Assembly: GCA_008632985.1 (NCBI GenBank)
Contig: QPGO01000373.1
Coordinates: 1-36,952, forward strand
DNA length: 36,952 bases
DNA from: Psammoneis japonica
Lineage: Eukaryota
Reading direction: 5' to 3'
Every line of letters begins with the position of its first letter. Position 1 is the first letter of the stretch. A program made the translations under genes and the position numbers. Of the stretch, positions 3,001 to 35,987 are shown in pieces. The notes beneath the pieces are model-generated. The model did no database searches. It worked only from the letters and a program-made list of their open reading frames with translations, and was not told the origin of the DNA.

Positions 3001-3050
3001 GCAGCTGTGGTTGCACTGCACTTTGCCCACACAAGGAGGACGGCCAATCA
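1..3050. repeat. Tandem satellite, ~187-bp monomer with ~561-bp 3-mer higher-order repeat; decays towards the right edge; runs off the left end of the window
   Basis: GCAGTTCTGGCTCCACTTCACTTTGTTTCCACC recurs at 1, 375 and 562. Monomer variant B (CCATGATGGGGTGAACCCAACTGAC) alternates with two A monomers (CCACAATGGCRTGATCCCAACCCAC). Copies after ~2130 are progressively more diverged. Confidence 0.95.
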
Positions 3051-7118: not shown

Positions 7119-7196
7119 CGCAATCTCAGATACAAAAAGCTTTTCATCAAACCAATCTCTCTATAGATACTCGTTAAAGTAGTTTCATTACGACAC

Positions 7197-11255: not shown

Positions 11256-11259
11256 TTTG

Positions 11260-14200: not shown

Positions 14201-14640
14201 AGAACAGCAGCCAGCAATGGCTGACTGATGCAACTGCAGCTGCCAGCAAGAAGGTGCAAATCCAAGGCACACTGTGACAGACAGCAGCTGCTGAGACTTG
14301 AGTCATTGCCAACTCAAGCAACCACAGTGCAGTCTCACCTTGCTCTGCAGGTTGGAGTTCCTGCCAGTGCCAATGCTGAGAAACATGAGTTTGGGTCTGT
14401 CACAGCAGAAGAGGTCCGCAGTGCTCTTCAACAGAGGGGCAGACCCAAGTGCGGCTGTCTTGGCTTGTGGCATGTGTCTTTGTGACTCAGCTGTTCTGAG
14501 CAGCAGCTTCATCTCTCTCCTCCGGCCATTGTCAAACTCAGCAGTCAAATTGACTGCCATGATTGCAGCCAGTTGGACAACAACTGAGCTTTAGACTCTC
14601 CAGGGGCCACAAAGCAGCTCAGCCACAAGATTGTAAAAAA
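11260..14640. other. TpA-depleted degenerate coding-like block, interrupted by a MITE
   Basis: Very few TA dinucleotides. The AACA TSD on both sides of the MITE shows the two flanks were contiguous. TCCAAGAGGACAGACTGGT occurs at ~12043 and ~12485. Family not recognised. Confidence 0.35.
13638..14032 (-). mobile_element. MITE copy 1 (395 bp), GACGCGTTCCAG TIR family
   Basis: Ends GACGCGTTCCAG.../...CTGGAACGCGTC with a 4-bp TSD AACA. Opposite orientation to copies 2 and 3. Confidence 0.92.
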
Positions 14641-14649
14641 GAGCAAGAG

Positions 14650-15205
14650 ATCACATGAGGTGTGCCTGGATGTTTTCCATGCAACACCTGCCCACCTCAC
14701 TGCTGCAACGTTTGCTGCCCTCACTTTCACCACACAGAAAAATGGCATCCGCGGCGAAGTCATCAGTTTGGGGCTGTCTGGTCATCCCCACTCATGCCCC
14801 ATCAAAGCTGCCATTTGCCGCATCCTCCACCTTTGCACCCATGGTGTGCTTCCTGACACTCCCCTGTTGGTTTAGTTTCATGCCGGTGCGTGGCACCGAG
14901 TCACTCCGACTGACATCACTGCTGTCCTTTGCACCGCTGTCCTGACCCTTGGCCTGCAACACCTTGGATTTGCTCCTGACCATGTCTTGGCCCATGGCCT
15001 GTGTGTGGCTGGTGCCATGGGGTTGTTGTGCACCCAAGTGGACACGGACATTGTGCGCCTCTTGGGTCGGTGGTGCTCCGACGAAATGCTGCGGCATCAG
15101 CACCTCCAGGCAGAACCGATCATGAGCAATTTTTCACAGCATGTGCTTCAGGGTGGTGCATTCACTCTCCATCCAAGTGCTGATGTCCCTGTTGACCCAC
15201 CGTGA
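14650..15205 (+). pseudogene. C-terminal part of the tyrosine recombinase of a DIRS/Ngaro-type retroelement
   Basis: LTFTTQKNG...CPIKA and HGLCVAGAMGLL...DIVRLLGRWCSDEMLRH are degenerate SLRxGGA and GRWxSxxxxxY boxes. The expected catalytic Tyr reads His (CAT). Confidence 0.85.
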
Positions 15206-18103
15206 TTTTGCTCCACCACCCTGCCAGACGTGCCCACCCTCCCTCCCAAGTCACAGGCCCTCCACTGCGTTTCTGCACTGCATGTGGGTGGCGCTGGCGG
15301 CCTGCCATCCAGCTTGGGTTTGGGAGTGGGGCTTCCCACAGGGCAAGCAAAGCCAACTCCACACCTGCCATTGGATTGGTTTGTCCCACTCACCAGTTTA
15401 GGACACCTCTGCCAAGGACAAATGAGAAAAGCGGTGAGAGCCGCTGTCTTCATGTGATCAGCAAAGAGGGACTCCAAATTCCCTCCCTCGTTGAAAGTGC
15501 TCAAAGTTGCGTTGGCGAGCAAAGGTCATCTTCATTGGTGTTGTTTGTGTTTTTCCTCTCCATCTCATTCTTTGGAGAATGACAACAGCAAGCCGGATCT
15601 AGACAGCCAATTTTGCTGTCGCATCCGACGCAGGACACCTCCGCCACTGTTGTTTTTCTCTTTCTTTCTTGTCGACACAGAACAATGGATCAGCATCCGA
15701 TCAAAAACCAGGTTGGCACACCACCGGCACAACCGGATTTACCGCCACTGCCAACTCATCCGGCACCACCCCAAGCACTGCAGCCGGCCCAGCAACCACC
15801 ACCGGGGGCACCACAACAAGCACCAGTCATCCAAGGTGCCAACGTCGCACCTCCACAGGCAAACCCACCACAGACCATTAAAACATGCGGGGACTGTTGA
15901 AGCACAGCTGGTCTTGACCCCCATCATGGAAACTGCCAGGAACCCATGCAGGACTTTGCCGCAGTTGTCAATGGCCCATCTTGGTGCAACTCGCAAGCGT
16001 TGTGCGGTTGCCTGGCCATGGCATCTGAACATGACGTGCAGCAATTCTGATGCACTGCTGCACGCCGGGAGTGGTTGACGACCCAGGATGCATGCAGATC
16101 TCCCATCAGCTTTCCACATGCCCAATGATGGCAGTGGGACAACCACAACCATGGGACGGTGGCACGCACGGGTTGGTCGGCGACTTGACGATCAACCAAC
16201 ACCAGATTGCTTCATTCCCGCAAACCATTGCCAACTTGGCACCCAACAGCACACATGTGCTCGACGACGCCACCATGTCAGCCGCCATCAACACTGACCC
16301 CGACAGAGTGCACCCGCATGTTGCCGCACAGACAGCTGACACTGTCAAGGTGTGCACGCGCAACTCCATGTTTGTGCCTTTTGCTTGTGTTGACTTGTTC
16401 TTGTTGACGTCTTTGATGCCCAAACAAGCCTTTGTTTGCATTCATGGTGCAGCCACAGCTGCAAACCAAGTTGATGCATGCCGCCCGCTCTTAGATTTCC
16501 CAAAGGTGGCTTGCAATGCCACACAGAACAATCCTGCAGCATCGGCTGTTTTGCAGGAATGGCCTGCATTGCCACAACCACCTGACGCCGTGCTCATTCA
16601 GTGCTTTGATGGAAAGGTTCAACAAGATTCACCAAATTGCCTCGGGCAAGAACCACCGCCGGTGCAGCAATGGCAACCAGTCATCACCGCCATCGACAAC
16701 TTGACTGCAGAGCAGCAACAACAATGCCTTAATGCCCAGGCAAGGCAGCTTGCTGGCACCCGAGGGAAGACTCCGCATGAGGCCCATGGAGAACAAGCCA
16801 CACTCAAGTTGATGCACTTGTGTCACGTGTGCCAAGAGGCCCAGTTGCCGCAAATGTGGACAGATCTGGCAGCCGCCCCCAAGACAGGTCACGTCGCTGC
16901 CATCCAAGGAAGTGTTGACGAGCAGAGGCAGGCACTTGGTGTGCACTTTGAGGTCCCAGTCTCAGTCAACCTTGTGACTAAGTTGCGCCAGATCAACTTC
17001 ACGGGTCACAATCAAAATGACCTCACGCAGGGCGTCAACCCGTTCATTTTTGGACTCACTGTGCCCGCACAAGCTGAGCAAATCGCGTGCAGGAATGCCC
17101 TGTGCCAACAGATCCACGGTGGCAAATCGGCACCTTCTGTTGCGGACACCAAAATGTTAGAAGCGCCCGATGAAGCACGCGTCACCACCACCATGCAGGC
17201 AGCACAGCACTCCCATGATGGGTGCCGCGTGGTCCTTTCTGCCGCTTTGGGACCACAGCATCCAGTCACCACGTGGCTGCTATAGCAGCACCGCACCGTT
17301 GACATCCACGCCAACGAGTTGGCCACACAGATGACCCGGAACCCCATGCTGCCTGCCGACTTGCAACGACATGCGCAATTGGAGCTCATGCAGTGGTTCA
17401 GTGATCAGAGCCGCGTGGACCAGCCCCTGCCTTTTGACGGTCATCCTGTTGCATGCCTGGCAGCCAAGGGAGCACTCTTTTGGCACTGCAACCTGCCCAA
17501 TGAAGTGATGCCACCAAAGACAGTCCCAACTGCAGTTGGCCCAGCAGCACATCCAGGAGCGCCCCAGCAACCAGTCCTTCCATCAGCGACAGCCTCTCGT
17601 CCTGGCGACAACTCCTCAGTGCGCAACGAGCATTTTGACGAGCGCTTCACTGAGATTCAGCAATGCTGTGCCCAAGCCAACGTCACCTTGCCAGTGGACG
17701 CCAATGGAACACCACGCTGCCTCCCCTTTCACATCAAAGGGCAGTGCAATTCCAATTGTGGCAGCCGTGCCTGTCATTGCAGCAGGCACACTCAGGTGGA
17801 GCAAGACACCCTGCTTGCCTGGGCCACCAAACATTGGATGCCCGAGTGGGCAGTCGGCAACGGTCCTAGTTTGGGGACCAGTGACCAGGAGCCTTCATCA
17901 GCTGCACGTCAGCAGTGCGTCTGTTGCCCCAGCAAGCAGAGAGACTGGGGAAACAGCAGCGCCGCCCCACAGCATGTGGACAGGCAATTGCCGAATGAGT
18001 CACAACTGACACATCAGGCAAGCACGTTGTGCGTGATGCTGCAATGTTGCGTCAACACGGACTCAGTCATTCACTTCAACTGCGTCGTGGACAAGGCAAC
18101 TTG

Positions 18104-19471
18104 GACTTGTTCCAGACTTAGGTGGCGCGCTCATGCCCCTTTTCGCACAAAAATCAAACATTTTATGCTTTATTCAAAACTTATATATCTATATATAATG
18201 ATGATATTAATGGCTGATAATTAAAATAATCAGATGAAATCCGAACCAACAACAGTCAAAATGGCCATGGCTTTCAGTGCCCATGACGGCCCGCTTTTTT
18301 CAACCTTGTGGAAAATTCAATGACACGACGAGGACCGCAGTATTTTATATAGTCTGTGTCACCAAAGAATATGATGAAAATGCTTGTTATAGGCTGCAGC
18401 GCAGCACAAGTAGACAAATCTGTCAGCAACAACAAATTTAGCCTCATTTCACTCACAATTTGCCTCTAAGGGCAAATTCTTTTTCTATACCACGTGTATT
18501 TCCTCCGTGTCACCGACTGACGCAAGTATTTCAGTGGTTTATGTCGATGAAGCGATGAAAAAGGGTCCGAAGTCGACGCCATTGCGTTGGCTGAGTTTCA
18601 TTTCTTCTCGTGTCTTCCTAAACTTATTAATCAACGTTTATTATATACATTCCGTTGAGAGTTTCTTGTATTCACGTAATATAACAAAAGATTATTGATG
18701 TATTATTAGAGACTAAATTTATATTTATGAAGATTTAGTTTATATGTTTATATGCACATTTAAACGTTCATAAATCGCTCATCGGAAAACCGAGCTCTCA
18801 TCTTACGGTACCATTTGGCGATCAATAACTCTTTCAATCTTTAGTTTCATATACTGTCCGTTTGGCGATAGCTGCAGACTTTTTTCTTACCGCTCGTCAA
18901 AAAAGTTTGCACAAGATCGGTTCTAGGACAAAATTTCACGCTGAATCGAATGGGCCACCTCGCACCTTCTGAAAATTGAGTCTTGAGTGTCTTTTGAACA
19001 GATCAATTTTTGGGGGGCGCCTTAAGCAAATTTTTTCCCGCCAAAAACACTCAGGGAATTATTTGATCATCTTGAACAAAATGACGGTCTTCGCAAAAAG
19101 TTTCATTCAGGGAGATTTTTCCATCCGACGATGACAATGGCCTGGCAACGCTGTCTCCTTCTCAACCACAAGCCGTTGAGTCTTGCAACTTCGTCGGTCC
19201 ATGCAGGACACTTGTGTGCGTGGACCGATGAAGTTTCAATGTCCAACTCCAGACAGTTGCAAAGCAGATGGCATTGCCGTTTTCAGCTCTGCAGCCATCG
19301 CCAAACGGACAGTACATGGGTGCATGCACAAGACCTTTCTGCATGCACCCACAACAACATGTTTGAAAATCATCATGTTTTAACTGTTGAAAATTGCACC
19401 GCAAGTTTGGACCGCGCGTTTCATGCAAAAAGGGCCATTTTTTCGCGCGTGTGCGCACTCTGGAACAAGTC
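18104..19471. mobile_element. Non-autonomous TIR element (1368 bp) nested in the DIRS pol
   Basis: TIR GACTTGTTCCAGA / TCTGGAACAAGTC with a 4-bp TSD CTTG. Excision restores the reading RRGQGNL-GPM...HHPAHRVL. Confidence 0.9.
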
Positions 19472-19937
19472 CTTGGGCCCCATGTGCCTCACCCGCCAAC
19501 ACCACCCGGCACATCGAGTGCTTCAAGGGTGCAAGCATCACGGTGTCCCCATCACCATTGCCAATGAACCTTGGAGTCAAGCTGAACGTGATGCTGGCGT
19601 CAACAGGGGACCTCACAAATCCGCCTGCGAGTGCATCAAATTTTTGCATGAAGACATGGCAGACTGCATTGACGAGGGATTTTGGACAGTGGTGCCTTGC
19701 AACAAAGTCAAGCACCATCCAGGCTTGTGCATTGGCCCCATTGGAGCAGTGCCAAAACATGGCCACCGTCCACGTCCCACAGTCGACTGCACACTCCATG
19801 GCACCAATGATGCTGCGCAGCCAAATGCACCTGTGGAGGCCATGCAGTTTGGGCAAGCACTTGATCGGCTGCTCCACCTCATGCTGCTGGCCAACCCCAA
19901 ACGGGGCCATGTCAGTCTCATGAAAACAGACATGTTG

Positions 19938-20334
19938 GACGGGTTCCAATCCCAGGTGGGACTCCGTGTGACATTGGGCCCGTAGACTTCTACGTGCGAG
20001 CTCTGTGTTAAAATTGTCAATCAATTAAAATTTGTATGATCGCCAACAGAAAAAGAGGCAATTTTACGAACGTATCTCCTCCTTCACACTCACAGCACAT
20101 GAACAACAGTTTGCATGGGCACATTCTACAGACATTAAAGAACACACCCAGTGTATTTTCATTGTCATAAATGTTGAAAATAGAAAGCCTTTGGCTTCGC
20201 AAAATGGGAAGTATGAAACAATTTCGTAGAATGTCACACGCAGCCATCTACGTGCGAGACATGTGGCGCGATCCAAAAAACTGTTGATGTCACAGTTCAG
20301 CACTACGAGGTCCCACCTAGAGCTGGAACGCGTC
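19938..20334 (+). mobile_element. MITE copy 2 (397 bp)
   Basis: Ends GACGGGTTCCAA.../...CTGGAACGCGTC with TSD GTTG. Excision restores the RT motif KTDML-DGFCR. Confidence 0.92.
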
Positions 20335-20605
20335 GTTGGATGGTTTCTGCCGCATGAACCTCAACTCAGATCGTGCCCCCGTCCTCGCCATTGCATTTCC
20401 CCCAACCTGCCGGGTGAACCCCCATTGGTTGCCATTCCAGCCAAGCTGCCCATGGGCTGGAGGAACTCACCTCTGGTGTTTAGCGCCGCAACAGAAACTG
20501 GCGCCGACCTGCCAACTTGCTCCTGATGTGTGACTGCAAAGCACCACCACACCGCCTGGAACAGTTGGCCATGTCACAGCCCCCACCCCTGCAACCGCCT
20601 TCACC

Positions 20606-20995
20606 GACGCGTTCCAGCCCCAGGTGGGACTCCGTGTGACATTGGGCCCGCAGAATTCTGCGTGCGAGCTCCGCAGCATGAGAATTTAATTGATGGACAT
20701 GTTTGTCTTCAACATCAAATAAACGGCCAAGTTTGTGGCACAATTGTGCCTCTTGCCACTCGATGTTTTTGCAAATGCACCTGCCCCACGCGATTCTAAA
20801 GACATCATAGAATCGCGCTGTAACAAAAAATGTCAAAAGTTGTTGGACGGATCGCTCAACAAGTGCACCGTAAAATGACACAAAATGTTGAAAAAATCAC
20901 GTAGAAATCTACGTGCGCGACATACAACGTGATTCAAAAAACTGTCGATGTCACAGTTCAGTGGCACAAGGTCCCACCTAGACCTGGAACGCGTC
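20606..20995 (+). mobile_element. MITE copy 3 (390 bp)
   Basis: Ends GACGCGTTCCAG.../...CTGGAACGCGTC with TSD CACC. Confidence 0.92.
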
Positions 20996-22418
20996 CACCG
21001 GCCACACCACTGGAAATCACCGTCCCTGTGCCCATGACACCAGACCCCCATCTCCGGCATGACTGACGCCGGTGTCTGGCACATGTGGAGATTTATGTTG
21101 ACGACTGCATCGGCACCGCCCAGGGTTCCCATGCTGCCCAATGGAGTGCACACCGAACCCTCCTTGCTGCAATCGATGACATCTTCCACCCGTTGGACAA
21201 CAATGACTCGCCCCCATGCACAGAACCAGTGTCAGTCTGGAAGCTCCAGAAAGGTGATGCGTCATGGTCCACCCAACGTGAAGTTCCAGGTTGGCTCATT
21301 GACACAAAAGCAATGACCGTCCGCCTTGCCACTCGCTGCCTGGCCTGTTTGTGCAAAATGCTGCACCAGGATTTTCCCCGCACCAGACAACGAGCTGCCA
21401 CCACCGACCATCACAAACTCCTTGGCGAACTCCGCTCCCCATCCATGGCTGTCCCTGGATCACGGGGCCTGTTCTCCAAGCTGCAGGAAGCTCTCCGACA
21501 TGCCCTCCCCGATGCCCGTGTGTGTCCAACGCCCAATGCACACGACATCTTGGATGATTTTCATGATCTCGCCAACCACGTCAAAATCTGACCCGTTTGC
21601 ATCCAAGAACTGGTGCCACTCACACCCACTGCACATGGCTGTCATGACGCTGCCGGTCACGGGGCCAGCGGCATCATGCTTCCTGCAGCCACCACCATCC
21701 CTTGCCACGCTAAACTCAAATGCTTGCCACATGGCCACTGTCGACACCAACTTGACCTTGGTCCCATGGTTTGGTGCATGCCCTTTCCAATGGATGTCAC
21801 GGACGATCTTGCTGTGTGCGAAAATCCCACCGGTTCCATCACCAACATTGACCTCGAACTGGGAGGCAGCATCGTCCACACCTGTGCTGTGTCAGACTGT
21901 TTCGACGTCCATGAACAGACCAACTTACAGTGCACTGACAACCTTGGTGCAATGTTTTGGCAGCGCAAGGGGTCATCCACCACTGCAAAACCCTGCTCCA
22001 AACTCCTCAAGCACACCACCTGTCATCAATGCAAACACCGCCACGTCTCGCTGCACAATTTCCTTGATGCCCCCCTCAACACCACCGCCGCCGATGCATC
22101 ACGTTTGCAATCACTCACCAATTCCGCCTTTTTGCACCACTTTGACACATTTTATCTGCAGACCAAGTCCTGGCGCTTGTGGACCCCGCCACCAGAGCTG
22201 CACTCCTTTGTGATCTCAGCTCTGCACAACAAGCGGTGGCCTTCACCGTTGCCCCTTCCTGATCCACCATGTACGACACCCATTGGGACAAGTGGGCTGA
22301 CTTCTGCGGCAAGCTGGCCATCAACCCACTGCTCCAAGAGATTGACAACCCCGTCCTTTTCCTCCAGGTCTTCATGCACCACTGCCAAACCGGCTGAATC
22401 ACCCCACGTGGCAATCCC

Positions 22419-22527
22419 GTCCATGCACGCACCACTGAAGATGCCGTGTGGACGATTGGCCAAACGTTTTCTGTCCATGCACGCACCACTGAAGATGCCG
22501 TGTGGACGATTGGCCAAACGTTTTCTG
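22419..22527 (+). repeat. Perfect 54-bp tandem duplication within the YR N-terminus
   Basis: GTCCATGCACGCACCACTGAAGATGCCGTGTGGACGATTGGCCAAACGTTTTCT occurs twice, at 22419 and 22473. Confidence 0.95.
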
Positions 22528-22531
22528 CAAT

Positions 22532-22948
22532 GGGACTGTTTCAGCACAGCCAATCTTGACCCCCATCATGGAAACTGCCAGGAACCCATGCAGGACTTTG
22601 CCACAGTCGTCAATGGTCCATCTTGGTGCAACTCGCAAGCGTTGTGCGGTTGCCTGGCCATGGCATCTGAACATGACGTGCAGCAATTCTGATGCACTGC
22701 TGCACGCCGGGAGTGGTTGACGACCCAGGATGCATGCAGATCTCCCATCAGCTTTCCACATGCCCAATGATGGCAGTGGGACAACCACAACCATGGGACG
22801 GTGGCACGCACGGGTTGGTCGGCAACTTGACGATCAACCAACACCAGATTGCTTCATTCCCGCAAACCATTGCTAACTTGGCACCCAACAGCACACATGT
22901 GCTCGACGACGCCACCATGTCAGCTGCCATCAACACTGACCCTGACAG
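22532..22948 (+). repeat. Duplicate of the DIRS gag segment ~15891-16305
   Basis: Near-identical sequence and near-identical predicted ORFs in both places. Confidence 0.93.
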
Positions 22949-23874
22949 GCCTGCAGTCCAGCTTGGGTTTGGGAGCAGGGCTTCCCACAGCACCAGCAAA
23001 GCAAATCCACTCCTGCAATTGGACTGGTTTGTCCCACTCACTAGTTTGGGACACCTCTGCCGAGGATGAACAAGAAAAGTGGAGAGAGCCACTGTCCTCA
23101 TGCAATCTGCAAAGAGGGACTCCGAATTCCCTCCCTTGTTGAAAGTGCTCAAAGTTGCATTGGCAAGCAAAGGTCATCATCATCGGTGTTGTTTGTGTTT
23201 TTCCTCTCCATCTCATTCTTTGGAGAATGACAACAGCAAGCCGGATCTAGATGGCCAATTTTGCTCCCACCTCTCCCGCCCTCTGGCCTGCCGTCCAGCT
23301 TGGGTTTGGGAGCAGGGCTTCTTACAGCGCCAGTGAAGCCAACTCCACTCCTGCAATTGGATTGGTTTGTCCCACTCACTGGTTTGGGACACCTCTGCTG
23401 AGGACAAACGAGAAAAGTGGCAAGAGCCGCTGCGCACCCTGCAGTGCCAGTTCTACAGCACGTTTCTTTTGCATTCCTGAACGATCACAAAAACATCACA
23501 AGTCACTTCTCATTCTAACATCATGCCAGCAGTTCCGTCAATCAAACCATCTCATCTCTACAAGGCGTCACTCGCCCTCATGGCAACCGGATGGCTTGCA
23601 AGACCCTCGGCAGCATGATTCTTTTCGTCATGGATTCCGGGCTTGTGCTTGGGCATGCCCTGCAGCACGCCATCCCAAGGCTCATAAAAAGGCTCACAAC
23701 TGGTTTGAAGACATCTTCTGATGTCGTCCAATTGATGATGTGGACAATGAGTCAGAGAGGTTCTACGACTGGGATCGTTGAGTGCTGTGATCTAGAAGCT
23801 CACTTTTTCTCTTGTCTGTCGACAACGTTGCGCCAGCTCAGTGCACAGTGAATTCACTTCACGCGTTTTTTACG

Positions 23875-24990
23875 ATGACTTCCAACGATGCTACGATGCC
23901 CTCCTTCGAACTCACCGGACAATGGGACACTCCGAAATGCTTCAAGGGGCCCACCACGAAGTTTGAAGTTCGAGACGTCCCTGACGACATCCACAGCGGA
24001 ATGCACGAAAAGAAAGTGACGTCTTTCAGCGGCGAGTGTGGCGATGATGACCCTCATTTCTCATGTGATTTCTCAAGACAGGTGAAGGAGATCTTTGACC
24101 ATGAGCCCTGCGAAGCAGGCCTGTCCAAGTTCGGCGTCTTCTCCACTTGTCTCGCCGGCACAGCGAAGACCGATTGGGAGCGAGTGCGACAGGAATTTGA
24201 AGATCCGGCGCTGGAGACAGAGGACATGTTCCAAGCCATCCTTGAAACATTCAAGACACATTGCTTCAAGAGCGACACACCTCGATGCGACCAGATCGAA
24301 CATCTGAAGACTGTCAAGAAATCGTCCGGAGCGACTTGCAAACAGTTGTCTCGGCGACAGACAGCATGATGACCGACCTTCAGCAATTTCCGCTGGACGT
24401 CAACAATGAAGGTGAGCCGCTGGACACTCAGCCCACCTTGTCTGACAATGACTGCGTCAACATGCTCATCAAGAGCGCACCGCAAGCTTGGCACGACAAA
24501 CTCACGGCCAACGGCACGAACCCTCGCAACCTCACCAAAAAGGACCTGAAAGAGTGATTCCACCGCATGGAAAAAGCAGAGAAATGCAAAGAGAAATGCT
24601 GCAAGCACTCCAACGACCGTCATCATGGAAGCGACGACCACGACAAAAAAAAAGAACGATCGCAAGACATCTCATGAGGGAACGTCCGGACACAAGATTC
24701 CCCGGAAATCCAAATGCTGCGACTTTTGCAAAAAGGCCGGACACAATGACCAAGACTGCAACCACCCTGGACATCTGCATCACAAGAAAGCATCCTTCAA
24801 ACACGACGACCGAGACAAAAATAACTGCCGCGACAAAGATCGGAACGACCGTCACCGCAAGCATCACTGTCACATCTCCGACGAAGAATCGGACCGATCA
24901 CATTGCTCTTCCAGTGACAAATCCTCGGACTACAATGACGGACGAGCACGTAAAATCCGCCGTTCCGAGAAACAGAATAAAAAAATGTGA
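23875..24990 (+). pseudogene. gag: Gypsy gag (disrupted)
   Basis: ATG at 23875, then frameshifts and stops. CCHC knuckle CDFCKKAGHNDQDC. Tyr is almost absent. Confidence 0.8.
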
Positions 24991-27900
24991 ATCTAGTGGC
25001 GAACTATCTGATGACCACCGGTTCAACTACTTACAAGACAAGATAGATCACGCGAAAGCGGAGCGTAGAAACGCCGCGATCACGAGAAATTTTTTATATC
25101 CGATTAAGCCGATTGGCGCCAAAATCGCAAAGAAAAAGCGCAAAACGGCAGTGTTAGCAGCTACAGTGCTACCAGAAGACGACTCTGTTACTGGATCAAG
25201 CACACTATCATTACTGGACTCTGGAAGCTCTGCTTCCCTCATACACAAATCTCAAGTGCCACGCAGATTCTGGCAAAAAATCAAATCTACCAGTTTTAAT
25301 ACAAAAACCGGCGAGTTCACATGTCGTTATAGAGTCTCATGTGACATAGCCTTACCAGAACTATCCACTACCAAAACCTTCCGATGGTCATTTTACGTTG
25401 ATGAAACAGATGACTCGACTTACGGCGTTATCCTTGGAAGCGACTGTCTCGAGGAACTCGAAATTGACCTATTGTATTCGTCAAAAACGATCCAATGGGG
25501 AGACTCATGGGCTCCAATGCGTAGCCATGATGAAGTAAAGAAAGGATCGGAAGCAGAAGAAATATTCTGGCAGATGCAATCCGACGAACATGATGCCGAC
25601 GCAAGCGAAATACTAAAAGATACCGCTTCGCGCGCAACTAAAATTTTAGACGCTAAATATGAAAAGGCAGACCTCGACAAAATAGTCGATGAATGCTCTA
25701 CTCTAAATAAAAAACAAAAGAAACAACTACTAAAGCTATTAAAGAGCCACGAAACTCTGTTCGATGGCACGCTCGGCGACTTCGACTGCGAACCAGCCGA
25801 CCTCCAAACAAAACCGGGCGAGGACATTCCGTATCACGCGAAACGAGCCTTCAGCGTCCCGCACATCCACAGAGACACCCTATACAAAGAAATACAACGA
25901 TTGGAGGCATTAGGAGTACTGAGAAAAAACGACTCCAGCCGCCATGCATACCCTACCTTCATTATCCCAAAGAAAAACAAAACGGTCCGCTTCGTATCCG
26001 ATTTCCGGAAACTCAACGCGAGACTCCGGCGAGAGCCATGTCCTCCGCCGACAATACAAGAAATATTACAACACCTACAAGGGTTTCAATATGCAACATC
26101 GTTAGATCTCAACATGGGATACTACACGATTAGACTTACCCCAGCAGCACAAGAAATGTGCACGATCATCACCCCGTGGGGGAAATACGGCTACCAACGC
26201 CTACCAATGGGAGTAGCAGTAGCGTCAGATATTTTTCAACTCAAAATGATGCAACTCATGCAAGGTCTAGAGAATTTTGTACGCACTTACCTTGATGACT
26301 TACTCCTTATTGGCCAAGGATCCTTCGAAGAACACTTGGACCAACTCAGCCAGGTCTTGACTAGGCTTCAAAAAGCCGGACTGAAAGTCAAACGCCGCAA
26401 AATCTACATTCTTTGCTACTGAGATAGAATACCTTGGTTTCTGGTTAACCAGGGAAGGGATAAAACCTATGCCAAACAAGGTAGCAGCAATAAATGAGAT
26501 TGCAAGACCAGAGACACAAAAAGAACTTCGCCGATTCATCGGCATGATAAACTTCTACCGCGATATGTGGAAGTCAAGGTCCCACTTAATCGCGCCACTT
26601 ACCGAGTTAATATCAAATAAGAAAAAGAAAAAACTCAACTGGCTCCCCATACATGAAAGAGCCTTCCAAGCAATCAAAGAGGTACTCAGCCGAGACGTAA
26701 TGCTGGCGTACCCCGACTTCTCAAAATATTTACAATCCACGTCGACGCGAGCGACTATCAACTCGGCGCCATAATCTCCCAGGAGGGAAAACCAATAGCT
26801 TTTTACAGTAGGAAACTGAACAAAGCACAAAGGAACTACACTACAACAGAAAGAGAACTGCTCTCTATCGTAGAGTGCCTTCGAGAATACAGAAACATCT
26901 TGTTAGGACACAAAATAGAAGTTTTCACGGACCATATCAATTTGACTTACGAAACGGCGTCATCAGCGCGAGTGCATCGCTGGCGCCTATTTACAGAAGA
27001 GTTCGGACCCACCTTGACGTTCATCAAAGGTGAGGAAAACACCGCAGCCGATGCAATCAGCCGGCTCGCGAAAGAAATACCGACTACGACAGTCGAAGGC
27101 CACGACGGCAGCGCGCCCCAACAATCAAATACTCAGCAGCCGGAGCGAATCACGCAATCCGAGCAGCTCTTCGTACAAACCCGAACTCGAAAGAAAAGAA
27201 AGCTAACAGAGAAAGCTAGAGCTCTCCAGGAAAAAGCTCAATCGCGATCCCAGCCGACCCGTAAGCGAAGGCGCCTGGAAAAAAGAAAAGAGGAAAATGT
27301 TCCCACTGATGGTTTGCCCATCAGCTATAACACTATCGCGAAACATCAATGGAAAGATACAAAACTATGTGAGAAACTTGAAACAGATAGCAATTACACG
27401 ATCAAAAAAATGGGCGATAACGACATCATTTTCTATAACAACGACCGCATGCCGATTCCGCGACCGCTCAGAAAATCACTGGTCGACTGGTATCATATCA
27501 ACCTCTGTCATCCCGGAGCGGATCGAACAGAAGAAACAATCAAACGCAATTTTATATGGAAAAACTTACGCGACGACGTACGAGACCGTGTAACACATTG
27601 TGACGAGTGTCAACGGCTCAAACGGCATACCAAAAAATACGGCCATCTTCCTGCCAAAATAGCAGAATACCATCCGTGGCGCAAACTTTGTGTGGATCTC
27701 ATAGGCCCCTACAAAGTACAGACCGCCGACGGAAAAATACACGAGCTGAAAGCACTCACCATGATCGACCCGGCCACATCGTGGTTTGAAATCAAAGAAA
27801 TACCCGATGCTACTAGCGAGACGGCTGCATTAATAGTCGACAGAGAATGGTTCTGCCGATATCCCCGTCCTCAAAAAATAACATACGATCAAGGCGGCGA

Positions 27901-28450
27901 GTTTACAGGCCAAGAATTTCAGGATCTGTTAGAATCCCATGGAATCAAAGCCAAACCAGCATCAAGCCGAAACCCACAGTCGAACAGCGTCATCGAACGC
28001 GTCCACCTTACTCTCCATATATGTTGCGCACGTTTGACTTACAAATACAAACACCAGACCCGATCCATCCCTGGTCAGGACACTTAGCCAATGCAGCTTA
28101 CGCTGTCAGAAGCACTTGCCACACCACACTCCAAGCCACTCCAGCAGAATTGGCATTTGGACGAGACATGATTTTTGATCAAAAATTCAGGGCTGATTGG
28201 GATCAAATTCGACGTCGCAAGCAACGACTAATCGACCAAAACAACAAGTGCGAAAATTTAAAACGAACAGAACATTTGTGCCGCGCAGGCGACCGCATGC
28301 TGCACAAAAGACGCGACGGACGCAAGCACGAATGCCATTGCGACGGCCTGCACGACATCATTGAGGCATGTTCCAATGGCACAGTGCGAATCCAAGCCGG
28401 TCGAAGGATCAAAGAGCGCATTAACATCCGCCTTCTACATCCTTGCAAAT
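24990..28450 (+). pseudogene. pol: Gypsy pol (protease, RT, RNase H, integrase) with ~3 frameshifts
   Basis: LLDSGSS, LDLNMGYY, RLPMG, YLDD, HVDASDYQLG, HHCC finger (HINLCHPG...CDEC) and the DDE triad VDLIGP / YDQGGEF / IERVH. Frameshifts near 26390, 26730 and 28020. Confidence 0.93.
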
Positions 28451-29356
28451 CACGACATTGGGTTCTTGCTTCACCCTTGGGGAAGCGAATGCAGTGCGCC
28501 ATCCCAAGGCTCACAAAAAGGCTCGTGACTAATTTGAAGATGTCTTCTGACGTCGTCCAATTGATGATGTGGACAATGAGTCAGAGAGGTTCTATGACTA
28601 GGATCGTTGAGTGCCATGATCTAGAAGCTCACACTTTTTCTCTTGTCTGTTGATGACGTTGTGCCAGCTCAGTGCACGCCCCTCTTTTTCGCGGGTGCCA
28701 AGTTTGCCATTGATTCAAAGCAAACATTCAAGAGAACCCATGCCCCCATGATGGGTGGTCCGACCCAAGATTCTCCCTTGCACACGGACGGAGAGTTTGC
28801 ATTGACTCGGAATCCCACGTGCCTTGGGATTGCCATTGCGCCAGGTGGAGCTGCACTGGCGACAAACTGTGCGTGGCATTTCGTGTTTCCAGTTGCAAAT
28901 GCTTTGGCAATGAATCACAGCTGCACTCCTGTAGAAGAACAGCAGCTCGAAGATGAGTTTGGCACAGTTCATTTGAAAAACAAGCGCAGAGTGCCACGTT
29001 GGACATAGAAAAGGAATGATCAGATGTGGAGCCAGCATTGCGTTTGCTCATCTCGGGCTGGATGTAGACACGCGCTCGAGTCAGACGTTTCGAAGCCAAA
29101 TCGATGGTTTCATTTTGCTGTGTTCTCAAACAATTTGCTGCAAAGCCGCGCCAAAGACTTGCAGGTGTTGCATCAGCAATGCTGCTGACACCGTCAATGG
29201 AAGGTCTTGTGTCTGGGGATGGTGCCATGTGAGTGCATGGTGGAACTGGTTTGGATTTCTTTTAGAGATGCAACAGAATCTAGTCCACACTGAGAACAAG
29301 ACAACACACCGGCAGAGCCGACAACTTTGCAGAGAGAAATTCTTCTGATCAATCTT

Positions 29357-30346
29357 TCATCGAATCTCCAGCTGCACAGTGGGGCATCCTGCTTGAGCCT
29401 TGTGTTGATCAAACACTCTTTGCAGTTCATTCACATGTTGCTTTGGCAGCTCTTGGATCTGCTGTGGTGTCGGATTTGCCACTTTTTCAGCCTCAACGGG
29501 GTCACCCAACACCGTGCTGCATTTGACTGGACAGGGCAATGGCGAGCCGCACTGTCCCCAGAAAAACATGAACGCAGCCGGGTGTCGTCTTGAAATCTCT
29601 TCAAATTCAACTTGATGACAAAAAGCATTCCCACCAAAGACATGCACTGGAATGAGACTTGCGCCGGTTTGCAGCGCGAGCTTCATGAGCCCATGTCGCG
29701 TGGCCTTGACCACGTGTGTTTTGGGCCGTGATGAAAACATTTCCGCCAATCTGCCCGGCAACAAAAACAGATTTTGACCTTGACTCATTTTTTGGCAGAG
29801 CACATTTCGACTCGCAGGTCCCGCCGATCCCCAGCAAAGCACTTGTCTCAGCAGCGGAGTGCGCGTCACAACCGTGGCGGCTGCGCCAAAGCCGTGTTGG
29901 GTCGGCAAGTGCTGACTGCAGAATGCCATCCAAAGAAAAGCCTGGAAAGGAGTCACGCCGTGTGGGTGCATGGCGCAAATGCACAACTGGGATGTTTCTT
30001 TTTCGGTGAGATGCGCCGCATCGTTTGCAATCAAGTTGTGATGCAAATCGAAAAGCTCGCGCCAGAGCTTGAAAACACTTCAAAAGCGTGGCCACGGTTT
30101 GTGAGGATGTGTCATGAGAATGAAGTCAATTATGAGCAAAACAAGCGATGCCTTTAAGGAACAAAACAAAAGAACTGGAACGAGCAACACCATGGCCAGT
30201 CCAGTGCAAAACAAACAAGGAACAATCAGCGCGAGAATCCATGCTGTGATTTTGTTGGCTCGTGTTGGTGGAAACCTCTGAGATGCGGCTCGAACCAAGG
30301 TTGGGGATCTCGCGTGTGCACCTTTAGCGGCGTTCTGCTGGCTCAT
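29357..30346 (-). pseudogene. DGAT2: DGAT2/MGAT-family acyltransferase pseudogene
   Basis: HPHG motif, then PLLRQVL, LLPGRLAEM, RHGLMKLALQTGASLIPVHVFG and VLGDP. The N-terminal TM segment lies in another frame (shift near 30080). No Tyr in the 229-aa ORF. Confidence 0.85.
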
Positions 30347-31580
30347 GTTGAGCATTTGACGTGCTCTAATGCACGTGGACGAGGCTAATAAAACCGTCGA
30401 CAACGCCAGAGTGCGCATCTGCGGCATGGTAAGTGCGGTCATAACGGCGGCATGGAAATCTGATTGGACAAACGACGTCAGCTAAGAACTTTTTTCTTAA
30501 CAATAAGTAAAGATGACATCATCCTTACCCCACCATCCGCCCCGCCCCCAGTCGCCGTGCGCCGCCGCCATGCATGCAACAACTTCAAAGAAAAAGTCCC
30601 AAGAGCAAGAGAGAGACACACACTGTGTGCGCAAACAGAAGGCACGTACCGCCCATGACAGCGGCAACTTTCGGACTAGTGAGCATAAAAATAACACCAT
30701 TAGAACCGCAGTGTTTTTGTTAGCATGGATATGTTGTTTCTCTTTTTGTTCAATGCACGTGCGACACTCTCATGGGATAATTTCTTCAACTGTCAAGTAG
30801 AAAGTTTTGCACCGTCCTTCTCGGGCCATTTAGTCTACCTACTCTAAAATCATTTAACTTACAAATAACACCGTTCAATCCGCCATATCTAAATTACTCT
30901 GTACGGTAGTTTCTGTGTCATAGAGATCTAGTTTAGGGACCTTATGCATGGCTTTCTGCGATGCAAGAAAAGACCTGAAAAATTCTTGCGATACAACAGG
31001 TCCATTTTGGAAAGAAGTACGCAAATCGTTACCATTTCCTTCTCGTCACATGTCATATCTACTTCATATTATCGATTGATACTACTTCTAAAGTCATAAA
31101 GTCGAGAGAAGTTGTCCAAAACAACCACACACCGCCATGGCGACTTGCACAAAAAAAACACATCTCATTCCACGTACAATTCTACGCGCGGCTTCAGTAC
31201 TTGACGTGATGCTTCTCGATACAGTGTGCTGTTCTGTAATAGTGCGTGCGTACTACAGTAGAGGCCTTACCGAGTCGTACGACTTGTTCTCATGCGACTT
31301 CGGAGAAACTCTCGATTTATTTAGCTGGCGGGCAGCCTCGCGAAGCCGTACGAAGTCCACTGAAGTCGCGTGATTTTGCCGATCACACGACTTGCGAGCC
31401 GATTTTCAGCTCTTGAAGTCGTGTAGTGTCGGAACATCTGTGGTATGTCTTCTACGCAATCTTCGCGTAAGGTGCTCGCACGACTTGTTCGAGAACCCTC
31501 GCCTCCAACTTGCCTCCAAAGAACAAAAGCACACAAAAACACACACCGGCATCGATGGGCCATGAGATAACACCGGCACC

Positions 31581-32675
31581 ATGGCAGAGAAAAAAACAAC
31601 CTGCGACTTCGAAAGTGCTCTTGATGCTCTGATGCATCCAGATAAACTTGGTGTTGGAGATGAAAACTCTCCACCAACTGGGCATGCCGCTGGAAAAGGG
31701 GATTGCACCGATGGGGACGTGACGATTGTTGGGGTGAAGCCCTCCGCGTGCAACAACATTGCCGACAGAGAACCTTTGTTGGAGGTTCCAAACATCCCAA
31801 AGGAGGCTGACATTGAGGAAATGGAAGGAAAGAGGCGCCTGCCAAACCTGACAAAAGAGGTCAATCAAGAGCTCTGTTGGGATCTCTTGACGTTGATTAG
31901 CACGCGAAATGCCCACTTGCCAATGCCAACGGGTGAGAGCGATCCAAAATGGGAGGAGGTTTTCTACTTGTTCTATGATCCTGTTAAAGGACCAGCGAGA
32001 GGCTATTCTCCGCCACAGGCACCAACCAAAATTCGCAATTGGCGCGAAGCAAATCTCAAAAGAGTTCGTGTTTTGGCCGCGAAGTATGATGCAAAGGCGG
32101 GGAAAGGAGCTGAGAAGGATGCGACGGGATGTGAGGTTCTGGCAAAGACTCTCAATGAAGCAAGACTTTCAGCACAGGCAGCAAAGAAAGATGAGACTCA
32201 AGAGGAACGCAACAAAGCAGCAGCGAGAAAAGCGACAAACGAGAGCTGTGAGTCGGAGCTTGGCCTCACACCTCCAGCTCCATTCAATGGAGGCAAGCAC
32301 TCAACCTGGAGCCATGACGTTGAGCCAACCATAGTTACAACTGTTGGGCGCCTGGATGGATCAGCAAGTGGAGACAGTCGGTCAAGGGATTTTGTGATGA
32401 ATTTGGAGGACGCCCAGAAAGGGGCTGAATCCTTGTTTTCAAATCTATCAAGTGGAATGGCCTTCGGCTCCCCTGAGCTGCAAGCATCCAAGAAGCGCAA
32501 GCTGGATGTGGAAACATTGCGTGAGCTATATATGCTCAAGAGCGATGTGGAAAAAAGCGGGAAAAAGGACGAGCGTCTAAGCGCTTTCTATGGAGCCATG
32601 TCTGAGGAAGTTTTTTCGTCTTTAGGCAAAAAGCCTGCCGAATCCAATGCCACCACCAAACCATCCACAAAATGA
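31581..32675 (+). CDS. Accessory ORF of the Harbinger-like element (putative Myb/SANT-like DNA-binding protein)
   Basis: Open 364-aa frame inside the TIRs, with spaced Trp residues (KWEEVF...IRNW), a charged helical stretch and a KKRK NLS-like motif. Function is inferred from the element architecture. Confidence 0.6.
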   Translation: MAEKKTTCDFESALDALMHPDKLGVGDENSPPTGHAAGKGDCTDGDVTIVGVKPSACNNIADREPLLEVPNIPKEADIEEMEGKRRLPNLTKEVNQELCWDLLTLISTRNAHLPMPTGESDPKWEEVFYLFYDPVKGPARGYSPPQAPTKIRNWREANLKRVRVLAAKYDAKAGKGAEKDATGCEVLAKTLNEARLSAQAAKKDETQEERNKAAARKATNESCESELGLTPPAPFNGGKHSTWSHDVEPTIVTTVGRLDGSASGDSRSRDFVMNLEDAQKGAESLFSNLSSGMAFGSPELQASKKRKLDVETLRELYMLKSDVEKSGKKDERLSAFYGAMSEEVFSSLGKKPAESNATTKPSTK

Positions 32676-32744
32676 AGTTCCAAATGATTGGTTTCTTTCC
32701 ATTGTTTAGCTTAGATTTAATTCATGTTTAGCAAGTTCATATTA

Positions 32745-34150
32745 TTGATCAAACAGCGTGCACTTTGACTTAAAGGTCGTTTGGATATGTGAATGCCGAT
32801 TCGGTTGTACTAGAGGTATGAAAACAAAAGTAACATTATTGGAAAGCGCTTGTTCTGTAGATAAAATTGTTGCCATTGATTGTTGCAAAACTCTTAGTCC
32901 TTCTAAAGCAACGCCTACTTGAGCAAACGCACTGGGATTTTGGCGCGCAACTGCGGGTCGGCAGGATATATGAATACCGATTCGGTTGTACTTGAGGTAT
33001 GAAAACAAAAGTAATACCATTAGAACGCTCTCATTCTGTAGATAATGTTACTGCTATTGATTGTGTCATAATTTTAAGTTCTTCTAAAGCAACGCCTACT
33101 TGAGCAAAACGTATTGGGATTTTGGCGCGCAAGTGCGGGGTCGGTAGGATATATGAATACCGATTCGGTTGTACTTGAGATATGAAAACAAAAGTAATAC
33201 CATTAGAACGATCTCATTCTGTAGATAATGTTACTGCTATTGAATGTGTCATAATTTTAAGTTCTTCTAAAGCAACGCCTACTTGAGCAAAACGCATTGG
33301 GATTTGGGCGCGCAAGTGCGGGGTCGGTAGGATATATGAATACCGATTCGGTTGTACTTGAGGTATGAAAACAAAAGTAATACCATTAGAACGCTCTCGA
33401 TCTGTAGATAATGTTAATGCCATTGATTGTGTCATAATTTTAAGTTCTTCTAAAGCAACGCCTACTTGAGCAAAACGCATTGGGATTTGGGCGCGAAAAA
33501 GTGCGGGGTCGGCAGGATATATGAATGCTGATTCGGTTGTACTCGAGGTATGAAAACAAAAGTAATACCATTAGAACACTCTCAATCTGTAGATAATGTT
33601 ACTGCTATTGATTGTGTCATAATTTTAAGTTCTTCTAAAGCAACGCCTACTTGAGCAAACGCATTGGGATTTGGGCGCGCAAGTGCGGGGTCGGCAGGAT
33701 ATATGAATACCGATTCGGTTGTACTCGAGGTATGAAAACAAAAGTAATACCATTAGAACGCTCTCAATCTGTAGATAATGTTACTGCTATTGATTGTGTC
33801 ATAATTTTAAGTTCTTCTAAAGCAACGCCTACTTGAGCAAAACGCATTGGGATTTGGGCGCGCAAGTGCGGGGTCGGTAGGATATATGAATACCGATTCG
33901 GTTGTACTCGAGGTATGAAAACAAAAGTAACACCATTAGAACGTCTCGATCTGTAGATAATGTTAATGCCATTGATTGTCCCATAATTCCCAGTGCTTCT
34001 AAAGCAACGCCTTGTTAAGCAAAACGCACTTGGACTTTTTGGCGCACAATAACTGCGGCGTCGTTTGGACAAGTCAATGACGATTCCGATCCGCTAGAGG
34101 TGTTGAAACAAAAAATAACATACCTCTGGAAAGCACTTATTCTCTAGACA
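32745..34150. repeat. Internal tandem array, ~183-bp monomer, ~7.5 copies
   Basis: GAATRCYGATTCGGTTGTACT starts at 32791, 32972, 33155, 33338, 33523, 33705 and 33888. The edge copies are diverged. Confidence 0.95.
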
Positions 34151-34183
34151 ATCAACATAAACTATAAAGTGTTTCTATGTTAT

Positions 34184-35620
34184 TTACTGTAGGTACTCTT
34201 CGACCGTTGGTGGCGAAAGACCGAAGGTGCCAATGCTGCTAATCTGGTTGTGATTGAAACAAGTGTAGCAATTGGCCAGCAAAAATGAAACCCTCAATTG
34301 CTCACATGCATGTGGATGCTCACAACACAGCTTCCAATCACTGAATGTACGACATACCCTGAACAAATTTGCCACCATGCCATGACTCCACTCAACTGTA
34401 ATGCGAACGCATTTCATCCGAAAGTTCTGTAGAATTTGGATTGGTGTAAGCGGGGCACCTTGGGCAGGTCGATGCGCCTGTCTGACACATTGCATGGCCA
34501 TGAAACCTTTGTCAGCATAAACTGCATGGACTTTCCCATTTGGAAACCGGCCTTGTTGGAGCTGCAACAAGCAATTGTCAATGCCGCTGAGTTCTTGAAG
34601 CCTGGCGTCGGCTCTGACAATTCAACAGACGACAGATGCAAATACATTGGTTAGACATTGCTTGTAACTCATCACTACAAATGGGAGCAAATGCTTGCCT
34701 TCGAGCTGACACTGGTCCCCAAACAAAAGAGATTCCATTGGGCAAGACAATGCTGAGGACCTTTGTGCCATGCAATTTTTTACACCGCGTGCACACTGAC
34801 CGCTGCAAGTCGCAGGCGTTTGGCTTTCTAGGTGCATCGATCCAATCTCCAATGGGACCTGTTCCTGGGGTCTCTGTCTCAAAGATGGAGCAGTCCATGA
34901 ATCCAAACATGTTGAACACACCATTCGGAAACCGCAAACCCGGCACCAAATGCTGCACATCATTCAATGGATTTGTCCAACGTGAAGGTGCAGCCAATTT
35001 TCGTTCAATTGCAGCCGCAAACCGTGGAAAGTCATCCACCCATCGCTCAAGACTGTTTCTATCCAAGAGATGCCCAAACCGACGCTCAGTGTGCCGAAGG
35101 AACCAAGGGTGTCCATGCGACCACCGCCTGGCGTCGCCACCAAAGAAACCTTCACACAATCTAACGTTGTCGAGTCCAGTCGCAATCTTTGTCAAGGAAA
35201 ACAAAAAGAGCTCTTCACCTCCAAACACATGTGCTTTGTTGCCGGTTGCTGGAACTCTTGCAGCTTGTGGTAGACCAAAAAGCGCACACAGGCGGTGCAC
35301 CTGCTCACGGTTGAACCGTGTGCAAATCCTGAGCCACGCATTGGAGCAGCAGTTGTCGATTGGCCGGTGTCTGACTCGCTCAAAGCTGGATCCATTTCAA
35401 GCTCTTCTTGGAATGGAATGTCAGCAAGGGCTGCATCTTGCCTCGCCCAATGATCTGCGAGATGACGACACGCAACCAAAGCTGTCAACGAGCATGCTGT
35501 GGCAAAATTGAAGGGTTGTTCATCGTCCAATGCTTCTTCTCCCAAATCCAAATCTGCCAGGTCATGCTCATGATTGATGACAAGAAGAAAAACAGCGAGG
35601 AACACTGTCCAATGAATGAC
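34184..35620 (-). pseudogene. Harbinger/HARBI1-like DDE transposase, degenerate, with a probable 85-bp intron (34614-34698)
   Basis: FGFMDCS, KKLHGTKVLSIVLPNGI..WGPVSARR|AD, YADKGF and NFRMKCVRITVEWSHG. The 5' end is approximate. Confidence 0.85.
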
Positions 35621-35987
35621 TCCTTTCAAGGATGTGGACCAAAGCAAATGGTGAGTGCGCAGCAAAGATTGACCACCGGTGGGAAGCGCATGGTTTCTGT
35701 GCCGGTGAGGAGTGCGCCTCGTTGCAGCACGGCGGCGATGTCCATTGTGGCGGCGAGGAGCCCTTGGCATTTCCACTGCAGTTGTTTTGTTCTTTCTTCA
35801 TTTTGTGCTTGATGGTTTTGATTCGAAACTGAAGACGCGAAGCCGCTTCGAACAACCCATGCGACATGGTCGCCGCTCTTGTCGCACGACTTCGGAGCTT
35901 GCGGCTTCACTTGAAGAGCTGATGGCGTGCACCCGCGCGTGCCGATCACGCACGATCACAAGTCGTGCGACTCGGCAAGGACACTCT

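Follow-up and report, generated by a model that had tools for sequence, protein, structure and literature searches.

Structure of the Ty3/Gypsy element

The window, i.e. the whole stretch of DNA that was analysed, comprises 36,952 bases from Psammoneis japonica (GenBank assembly GCA_008632985.1, contig QPGO01000373.1, positions 1 to 36,952 of the forward strand) and contains a Ty3/Gypsy retrotransposon of 5.0 kb, from whose ends, but not from whose middle, the dinucleotide TA has been erased. A pair of long terminal repeats (LTRs), a target-site duplication, a zinc knuckle in gag, and the order protease, reverse transcriptase, RNase H and integrase were all present. The 5' LTR (23661 to 23846) and the 3' LTR (28490 to 28677), both on the plus strand like the other parts of the element, formed a direct repeat of 186 to 188 bases with 88.8% identity. 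They started with TG and ended with GTGCA(C), and a target-site duplication of 4 to 5 bases (tgccc and cgccc) was found at the element borders.

The gag region (23847 to 24919), characterised by its composition, by segmentation with a hidden Markov model (HMM) and by relatives found with HMMER, was degenerate. It started with a methionine at 23875 and contained a zinc knuckle of the form CX2CX4HX4C (CDFCKKAGHNDQDC), which starts at 24718. The reading frame was broken by frame changes near 24347 and, in a poly-A run, near 24650, as well as by an in-frame TGA at 24556; other copies, represented by contigs of public run X1, had one additional C following 24347. Protease, reverse transcriptase, RNase H and integrase occupied 24931 to 28100, and the Pfam domains RVP, RVT_1, RT_RNaseH, Integrase_H2C2 and rve followed each other in this order in frames within 24452-28087. 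The two long frames of the element interior contained 18 and 16 tyrosines (Tyr), and for the RNase H-integrase frame the best relative with a name was a Gypsy polyprotein of Fistulifera solaris (58% identity). The 3' internal end extended from 28104 to 28489. To the left of the element lay older, TA-free repeat DNA (20925 to 23660), part of which is duplicated at 15299-16306, and to the right a TA-free tract (28678 to 30320) that holds on the minus strand a pseudocopy of a diacylglycerol acyltransferase (DAGAT) gene.

Loss of TA and retention of CG in gag

According to the original prediction, the segment from 23850 to 24930 has virtually no TA but abundant CG. This was confirmed. The 1,081 bases contained 77 CG, with an observed-to-expected ratio (o/e) of 1.08, and only three TA, at 23871, 23892 and 24822, while 58.4 were expected from the base composition (o/e 0.05); both strings cited as examples were located, at 24181 and 24802. 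The lowest TA count obtained in 5,000 shuffles of this segment was 38, and sliding windows of 1,081 bases over the TA-normal tracts (72 windows) had at least 32. At the TA density of the element interior (171 TA in 3,170 bases) 58.3 would be expected, and the probability of finding three or fewer is 1.6e-21. The interior itself was not TA-mutated and had a TA o/e of 0.80 and a CG o/e of 1.23.

The density of pyrimidine-purine steps was nearly constant over the window (218 to 281 per kb), and only the make-up of these steps shifted. The share of TA was 0.012 in gag and 0.226 in the interior, whereas the shares of CA and TG were higher in gag by 0.086 and 0.089, respectively. As these two gains were about equal and the share of CG was undiminished (0.306 in gag versus 0.266 in the interior; Fisher p = 0.25), TA had turned into CA and TG at no cost to CG. 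Thus about 95% of the TA in gag had gone, while a CG deficit was not measurable against the element's own interior. The combination of CpG deficit and TpG/CpA excess that is left by the decay of 5-methylcytosine was absent, the CG share being at least that of the interior. A CpG o/e reduced as strongly as that of TpA was therefore not found. Taken by itself, gag would fit a spectrum with hardly any G:C>A:T, but in the duplicate pair described below 9 CG>TG/CA changes stand beside 11 changes at TA and may come from the same process or from another. The CG share of gag was also significantly higher than that of the left flank (0.161; p = 2e-6), where CG had partly decayed, of the right flank (0.195; p = 0.0013) and of the old tract 9343-13648 (0.044; p = 5e-29).

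TA-depleted tracts and their borders

The window was segmented with a two-state HMM that scores each TA, CA or TG step as TA or not TA. This gave 10 TA-depleted tracts of 465 to 4,306 bases with a TA o/e of 0.05 to 0.18, separated by sharp borders from TA-normal tracts with an o/e of 0.52 to 0.87. Three short segments were set aside as probable chance results and left out of the sliding-window, step-share, product-excess and flank-survival counts, namely a normal segment of 48 bases (3312-3359) and two "depleted" segments of 203 and 258 bases in a host gene (7360-7562 and 8467-8724). The GC content was 0.50 to 0.57 in the mutated tracts versus 0.37 to 0.48 in the normal tracts.

Two of the borders lay inside the Gypsy element, at 24919/24931 and at 28100/28104. 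The left flank, the 5' LTR and gag formed one TA-free run up to 24919 (tract 20925-24919). TA was normal from 24931 to 28100, and from 28104 the DNA was TA-poor anew, across the 3' LTR and on into the flank to the right; in the 3' internal end only four TA were left, and CG was kept (share 0.27). The element was therefore mutated over 1.26 kb at its left end and 0.57 kb at its right end, while 3.2 kb in the middle were spared. Edited ends and an untouched middle in one and the same element show that the process acts on tracts and not on elements. A contig of run X1, which is possibly the assembly's own sample, matched 24464-27025 without a single difference; since it bridges the left border, this border is not an assembly join. 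Contigs of the same run also matched 20971-22448, 26998-28146 and 28678-29365 without difference.

Older relics lacking both dinucleotides, with which gag had been contrasted, were indeed present: the tracts 2-3309, 3361-5607 and 9343-13648 had a TA o/e of 0.05 to 0.06 and a CG o/e of 0.13 to 0.24. Over the older tracts in general the CG o/e was 0.13 to 0.63 and CA and TG were in excess, as decay of 5-methylcytosine would give.

Time and direction of the changes

The two LTRs of an element are identical at the time of insertion, by the mechanism of reverse transcription. Sites at which the LTRs now differ in TA or CG were therefore changed afterwards, separately in each LTR and on either strand. 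The alignment had 19 mismatch columns, of which 13 were derived from TA and 5 from CG, with 1 other; by class these were five CA/TG doublets, three TA-versus-CA/TG differences, five CG-versus-TG/CA differences and one other. At least 8 LTR sites were still TA at insertion, and at 5 of them the two LTRs were changed on opposite strands, so that one now has CA and the other TG. As only 1 of the 19 differences is background mutation, the element is young in spite of the 11% divergence between its LTRs, which overstates its age about 20-fold.

Tyr codons need TA. Thirteen gag relatives were found by HMMER; 10 of these and the Fistulifera protein were aligned with the window. At all six columns where at least half of the relatives have Tyr, the window had another residue (C, C, H, S, C and L); the Tyr of the GEYG motif, present in 11 of 11 relatives, was Cys. 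The 262 gag residues of the window contained no Tyr at all, versus 2.1 to 6.0 per 100 residues in the relatives. Since Cys and His stand at conserved Tyr columns, the ancestral gag was not free of TA. The protein relatives and the LTRs together thus speak against a consensus gag that would be as TA-poor as this copy.

The same replacement was seen in the DAGAT pseudocopy (29357-30079, minus strand; Pfam E = 2.5e-27), a type-2 enzyme without any Tyr. All nine Tyr columns defined by nine relatives were occupied by other residues (H in five, C in three and R in one), while seven of nine Arg columns were kept. Even so, its frame stays open over 240 codons.

Contigs of runs X1 and X2 joined 23654 to 28677 without the element, from which it follows that an empty-site paralogue or allele exists. 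This empty-site copy, which belongs to the same sample and is about 92% alike, kept TA at six or more sites that read TG or CA in the window; the reverse was not seen among the difference rows listed.

In the LTRs, at the Tyr columns and in a pair of duplicated segments described below, the changes at TA sites were A:T>G:C transitions that gave TpG or CpA. Both strands were hit, as shown by 6 T>C and 5 A>G changes at TA in the duplicate pair and by the nearly equal gains of CA and TG in gag. The loss of TA is hence a mutational, tract-based process at the level of DNA that is specific for TpA and took place after insertion.

Rates of TA loss and CG loss

A duplicate pair in the window served as a before/after clock. 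The mutated copy (35987 to 36952, plus strand; 966 bases) was 97.5% identical to 31259-32224, with 24 mismatches. In the mutated copy 11 TA had become CA or TG and 9 CG had become TG or CA, whereas the other copy had suffered no TA loss and one CG loss; the remaining 3 changes were of other kinds. Per site, 11 of 18 TA but only 9 of 56 CG had changed (Fisher p = 4.6e-4), which corresponds to a first-order loss ratio of about 5. The LTRs gave a similar picture, with at least 13 hits among about 20 detectable TA site-copies versus 5 among about 18 CG site-copies. Both the duplicate pair and the LTRs thus put the loss per site at about four to five times as high for TA as for CG; in gag the ratio was larger.

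The 10 TA-depleted tracts spanned CG o/e values from 0.13 to 0.81, while their TA o/e stayed at 0.05 to 0.18. All TA-normal tracts had a CG o/e of at least 0.93, except for the 48-base segment 3312-3359 with its single CG (o/e 0.74). Since CG-poor tracts (o/e below 0.9) were all TA-free and the reverse never occurred, CG loss is nested in TA loss: TA goes first and saturates, and CG follows. The erasure of TA is much faster than the decay of CG and probably independent of it.

Influence of flanking bases

The influence of flanking bases was determined by comparing the TA that survived in the depleted tracts with the TA of the normal tracts. The satellite tracts 2-3309 and 32527-34267 were excluded from these counts, as their copies are not independent. 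Sites of the type RTAY (R, purine; Y, pyrimidine), mixed sites and YTAR sites were counted 6, 51 and 55 times in the depleted tracts versus 132, 268 and 82 times in the normal tracts. Survival was accordingly 0.019, 0.079 and 0.28 (chi-square p = 5e-14), a 15-fold span. None of the ATAT sites survived, versus 36 in the reference, and CTAG and TTAA survived best. The survival values were multiplicative (0.138 x 0.53 = 0.073), as would result from independent contributions of the flanks or of the strands. CG survival in the same contexts was 0.68, 0.55 and 0.64 (p = 0.22) and thus followed no order. YTAR sites survived at 0.27 to 0.28 in middle-aged and old tracts alike, while CG survival fell from 0.55-0.86 to 0.14-0.31.

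Evidence that the flanks decide which strand is hit was equivocal. At mixed sites, 9 of 12 single events occurred as predicted (one-sided p = 0.07), and the product-excess ratios for strand choice were about 2.9, 1.3 and 1.0 to 1 in three nested sets. The survival of TA by context suggests that the mutator has a preference extending over four bases.

The different neighbour rules and the different time courses of TA and CG loss argue for two mechanisms. From the composition of gag it had been proposed that TA conversion is faster than the deamination of 5-methylcytosine and mechanistically separable from it. That TA is lost faster than CG was borne out by the duplicate pair, the nesting of the tracts and the comparison of gag with the interior; the separate mechanism has indirect support and is plausible and indeed probable, but unproven.

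Other repeats and genes in the window

Two satellites were present. The first (1-3050) consists of at least 16 copies of a unit of 187 to 190 bases with a three-monomer higher-order period, every third monomer being 94 to 98% alike. It was almost devoid of TA and CG, and its copies had CA or TG at the same sites (CCACAATGG versus CCATGATGG), which indicates that this satellite was mutated in place. The second (32775-34046) has seven copies of a 183-base unit with 106 TA in 1,272 bases and normal CG, and has escaped the erasure of TA. Comparison of the 187-base and 183-base satellites gave no sequence similarity. Kinship was also sought by a purine/pyrimidine-reduced comparison; identity was about 70% whichever orientation was used, and the result was rejected as meaningless.

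An element of about 400 bases with the ends GACGCGTTCCAG... occurred at 13633-14036 and, inverted, at 19933-20338, with partial copies at 20606-20671 and 20898-20995. The copies have normal TA and form islands along the margins of TA-free tracts; the inverted pair brackets 14022-19976. A duplication in swapped order relates 15890-16306 to 22532-22948 (97% identity) and 15299-15617 to 22948-23265 (89% identity). Since these duplicates are both TA-free and differ mostly at CG and background sites, they were duplicated after the loss of TA. The left flank of the Gypsy element, itself TA-free, further contained a perfect tandem duplication of 54 bases (22419-22526).

A gene island (5610-9340) was TA-normal with sharp borders on both sides. 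It contained an HMG-box frame (6177-7118, plus strand) and a frame of 643 codons (7197-9128, minus strand), for which there was no Pfam match and a protein search gave no usable match. The coding DNA of host-gene tracts was moderately TA-poor (o/e 0.52 to 0.65).

Long open frames were also found in TA-free, dead DNA, for example at 16035-17285 (416 codons, no Tyr) and 21592-22692 (366 codons, one Tyr). Such frames persist because TAA and TAG vanish and the change of TA to TG or CA makes no new stop codon. Gene callers may accordingly predict false, Tyr-less proteins in DNA of this kind.

Discussion

The explanation that we consider likely, when taken as a whole, is that the ends of a young Gypsy element were mutated after insertion by a TpA-specific process and that CG decays later. 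The element, young and already broken, would have inserted into silent repeat DNA that was itself already mutated. The process would then have turned nearly every TA in both LTRs into TG or CA and would have converted gag, the foremost 1.07 kb of the interior, and the last 0.39 kb in the same way, sparing the 3.2-kb middle. It would make A:T to G:C transitions on either strand about equally, would act on a chromosome tract with sharp borders rather than on a whole element, and would bring TA to its floor while CG steps hardly change. In these tracts CG would afterwards decay slowly, deamination of 5-methylcytosine being the likeliest cause, until old relics without both dinucleotides are left. 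The chemistry may be an enzymatic deamination of adenine in 5'-TA-3', by analogy with the proposal made for Bigelowiella natans, and the targeting may follow silent chromatin that spreads in from the flanks or the LTRs; the data would agree with a spread from silent flanks as well as with nucleation at the LTRs followed by leakage. That the element lies within older mutated DNA, that its ends but not its middle are mutated and that repeats are not always hit suggests targeting by position.

Several observations weigh against this explanation. It does not account for the escape of the element's middle. The tract limits were derived from the TA data themselves and are circular for TA, though not for CG. 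The statement that gag has lost no CG is a comparison with the element interior, the gag relatives being proteins of 26 to 42% identity. CG loss in the element is in fact small but not zero: five CG sites are not the same in the two LTRs, and at two conserved Arg columns gag has His and a stop codon, the products expected from CGN>CAN and CGA>TGA. If the ratio of 4 to 5 is applied to gag, a CG loss of about 45% is predicted, contrary to the data. Finally, CG losses co-localise with TA losses, both in the duplicate pair (9 versus 1; p = 0.02) and in the same tracts. With respect to gag, either the ratio varies, as it would in bursts, or small counts mislead; the contrast would fit episodic bursts like those in B. 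natans, within the limits set by the small numbers and by the ancestral CG content. The co-localisation means that the processes acting on TA and CG probably share their target, which most simply is probably silent, methylated chromatin.

Thymine modifications sit at TpA in some protists, and if an enzyme of the TET/JBP type turned the T of TpA into, for example, 5-hydroxymethyluracil or base J, this base might mispair with G and yield T>C. As TpA is self-complementary, this would leave the same footprint, A>G and T>C being inseparable by sequence, and the results for the duplicate pair, the LTRs, the step shares and the flanks fit both chemistries. Adenine deamination, for its part, is the proposal of the only paper on this signature and is unproven there too; a thymine chemistry, against which nothing in the window speaks directly, is in our view unlikely. 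Quite unlikely, in our opinion, is a single mutator, be it an enzyme or a damage process, that attacks both self-complementary pyrimidine-purine steps, TpA strongly and CpG weakly, so that the decay of CG would not be a separate deamination of 5-methylcytosine. Such a mutator would explain why one copy of the duplicate pair took nearly all losses of TA and CG alike (11 and 9 versus 0 and 1), why the two losses share their tracts all over the window, and why both end as CA or TG; amphioxus ADAT2 is said to edit both A and C in DNA (quoted in the text of Mettrop et al., bioRxiv 10.64898/2026.01.13.699255). Yet it is the 3' base that changes in TpA and the 5' base in CpG, so that one neighbour rule cannot cover both, and the two losses differ in their dependence on the flanks. 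The same TA floor was reached in tracts with an about four-fold difference in CG (o/e 0.20 to 0.81), gag lost about 95% of its TA without a measurable CG deficit, and 230 of the 231 hypermutations described in the text on B. natans were at A:T.

Editing before integration, either by an ADAR-like A-to-I conversion of the element RNA or by recombination with RNA of a mutated copy during reverse transcription, appears very improbable. A chimeric cDNA could indeed give a mutated gag joined to a clean pol, and Mettrop et al. state in their Discussion that ADAR favours a U on the 5' side. On the other hand, at least 8 LTR sites were still TA at insertion and 5 were later changed in opposite directions, gag was hit equally on both strands, and a host pseudogene, a satellite and the flanks bear the same signature. 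Avoidance of TA in the native gag, through selection against UpA in RNA or through codon bias, might be considered in view of the moderate TA poverty of host-gene coding tracts (o/e 0.52 to 0.65), but is scarcely credible for a gag whose conserved Tyr columns read Cys or His and which is broken by frame changes and a stop codon; the loss is moreover shared by the noncoding DNA of the satellite and the LTRs, while pol of the same element is normal. Methylated motifs cause systematic consensus errors in nanopore data, and wrong calls at modified bases in long reads, or two copies fused during assembly, could in principle mimic the pattern. Such an artefact is extremely unlikely: contigs of run X1, even if this run is perhaps the assembly's own sample, match the window including the border without difference, neither frame changes nor stops nor the 10-fold CG loss of the old tracts are effects of basecalling, and the signature in B. 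natans, as the text of that preprint describes it, came from short-read data.

In Neurospora and further ascomycetes, repeat-induced point mutation (RIP) changes CpA to TpA, by which the GC content falls. The process described here resembles RIP in its dense transitions ruled by a dinucleotide, in the sharp tracts of repeat or foreign DNA, in the leak into neighbouring DNA and in the killing of genes. Its chemistry is the opposite, since TpA is removed and GC is raised, and the direction of the changes is thus not that of RIP. Repetition is also not sufficient here. The mutated DNA includes duplicates and a satellite, but the spared DNA includes repeats as well: the tandem repeat of 183 bases, the inverted repeats at 13633-14036 and 19933-20338 (about 400 bases each) and the interior of the Gypsy element, which has multiple copies.

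Editing of retroelements by ADAR and APOBEC proteins during replication (PMC4866542, PMC5224506) likewise produces clustered transitions with a preference for neighbouring bases in retrotransposons. There it affects RNA or cDNA before integration, on one strand, and is common to both LTRs, whereas here the changes took place after insertion on both strands and extend to DNA that is not derived from retroelements. In the diatom Phaeodactylum tricornutum, DNMT5a-dependent methylation has been linked to the control of young transposons (Hoguin et al. 2023, PMC9998398). CpG decay in methylated transposons resembles what was seen in the older tracts of the window but not in gag (CG o/e 1.08), where the change was at TpA and is inexplicable by cytosine methylation.

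The process corresponds to the signature described in April 2026 for the chlorarachniophyte B. natans. Mettrop et al. (bioRxiv 10.64898/2026.01.13.699255) report on mutation-accumulation lines of this alga: out of 231 mutations that arose in two viral regions integrated in its genome, 230 were changes of A to G or of T to C, all of them on TpA. The rate was about 6e-7 per site per generation and about 1000 times the background; only some of the lines were mutated, and an ADAT2-like protein was proposed, without proof, for the deamination of adenine. Both cases share the restriction to TpA, the change to TpG or CpA depending on the strand, the regional occurrence beside untouched DNA, the choice of foreign or silent DNA and an apparently episodic course, and the long-term footprint is in both a low TpA with high CpA and TpG. 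They differ in lineage, the present one being diatom-like to judge by the Fistulifera relative of pol, and in their targets, which in B. natans are integrated giant-virus and virophage DNA, and here LTR retrotransposons, a satellite and pseudocopies of genes. According to the same text, the viral regions have a Rho of 0.45, while here the loss is near saturation (TA o/e 0.05 to 0.14), can stop inside an element and is followed by decay of CG; the mutations in B. natans were seen to arise in culture, whereas those in the window are known from standing sequence alone. New here are the partly edited element, the comparison of rates with CG and the flank rule; CpG, diatoms and effects of flanking bases are not mentioned in the main text of Mettrop et al. 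A description of TpA-erasing mutation in diatoms was not found in the literature searched, which lay for the most part outside subscription journals.

Erasure of a single dinucleotide from silent DNA, with a chemistry opposite to that of RIP, thus has one prior report, a 2026 preprint on an unrelated alga. The diatom-like case described here brings the erasure of TpA into a second major lineage and adds ordinary transposons and pseudogenes to its targets, and the locus adds kinetics, since one element combines edited ends, an untouched middle and intact CG. Tentatively, and as a possibility about which we remain in some doubt, we propose that diatoms have a dedicated, burst-like DNA editor of TpA that acts on newly silenced DNA, enters from silent flanks or LTRs, prefers RTAY and reaches its floor before methylated CG starts decaying. 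Such an editor would be distinct from cytosine methylation, would be shared with chlorarachniophytes and might be old in the group of stramenopiles, alveolates and Rhizaria (SAR). If this is true, partly edited elements would be time-stamped snapshots of the speed of the editor, the length of its tracts and the direction of its spread.

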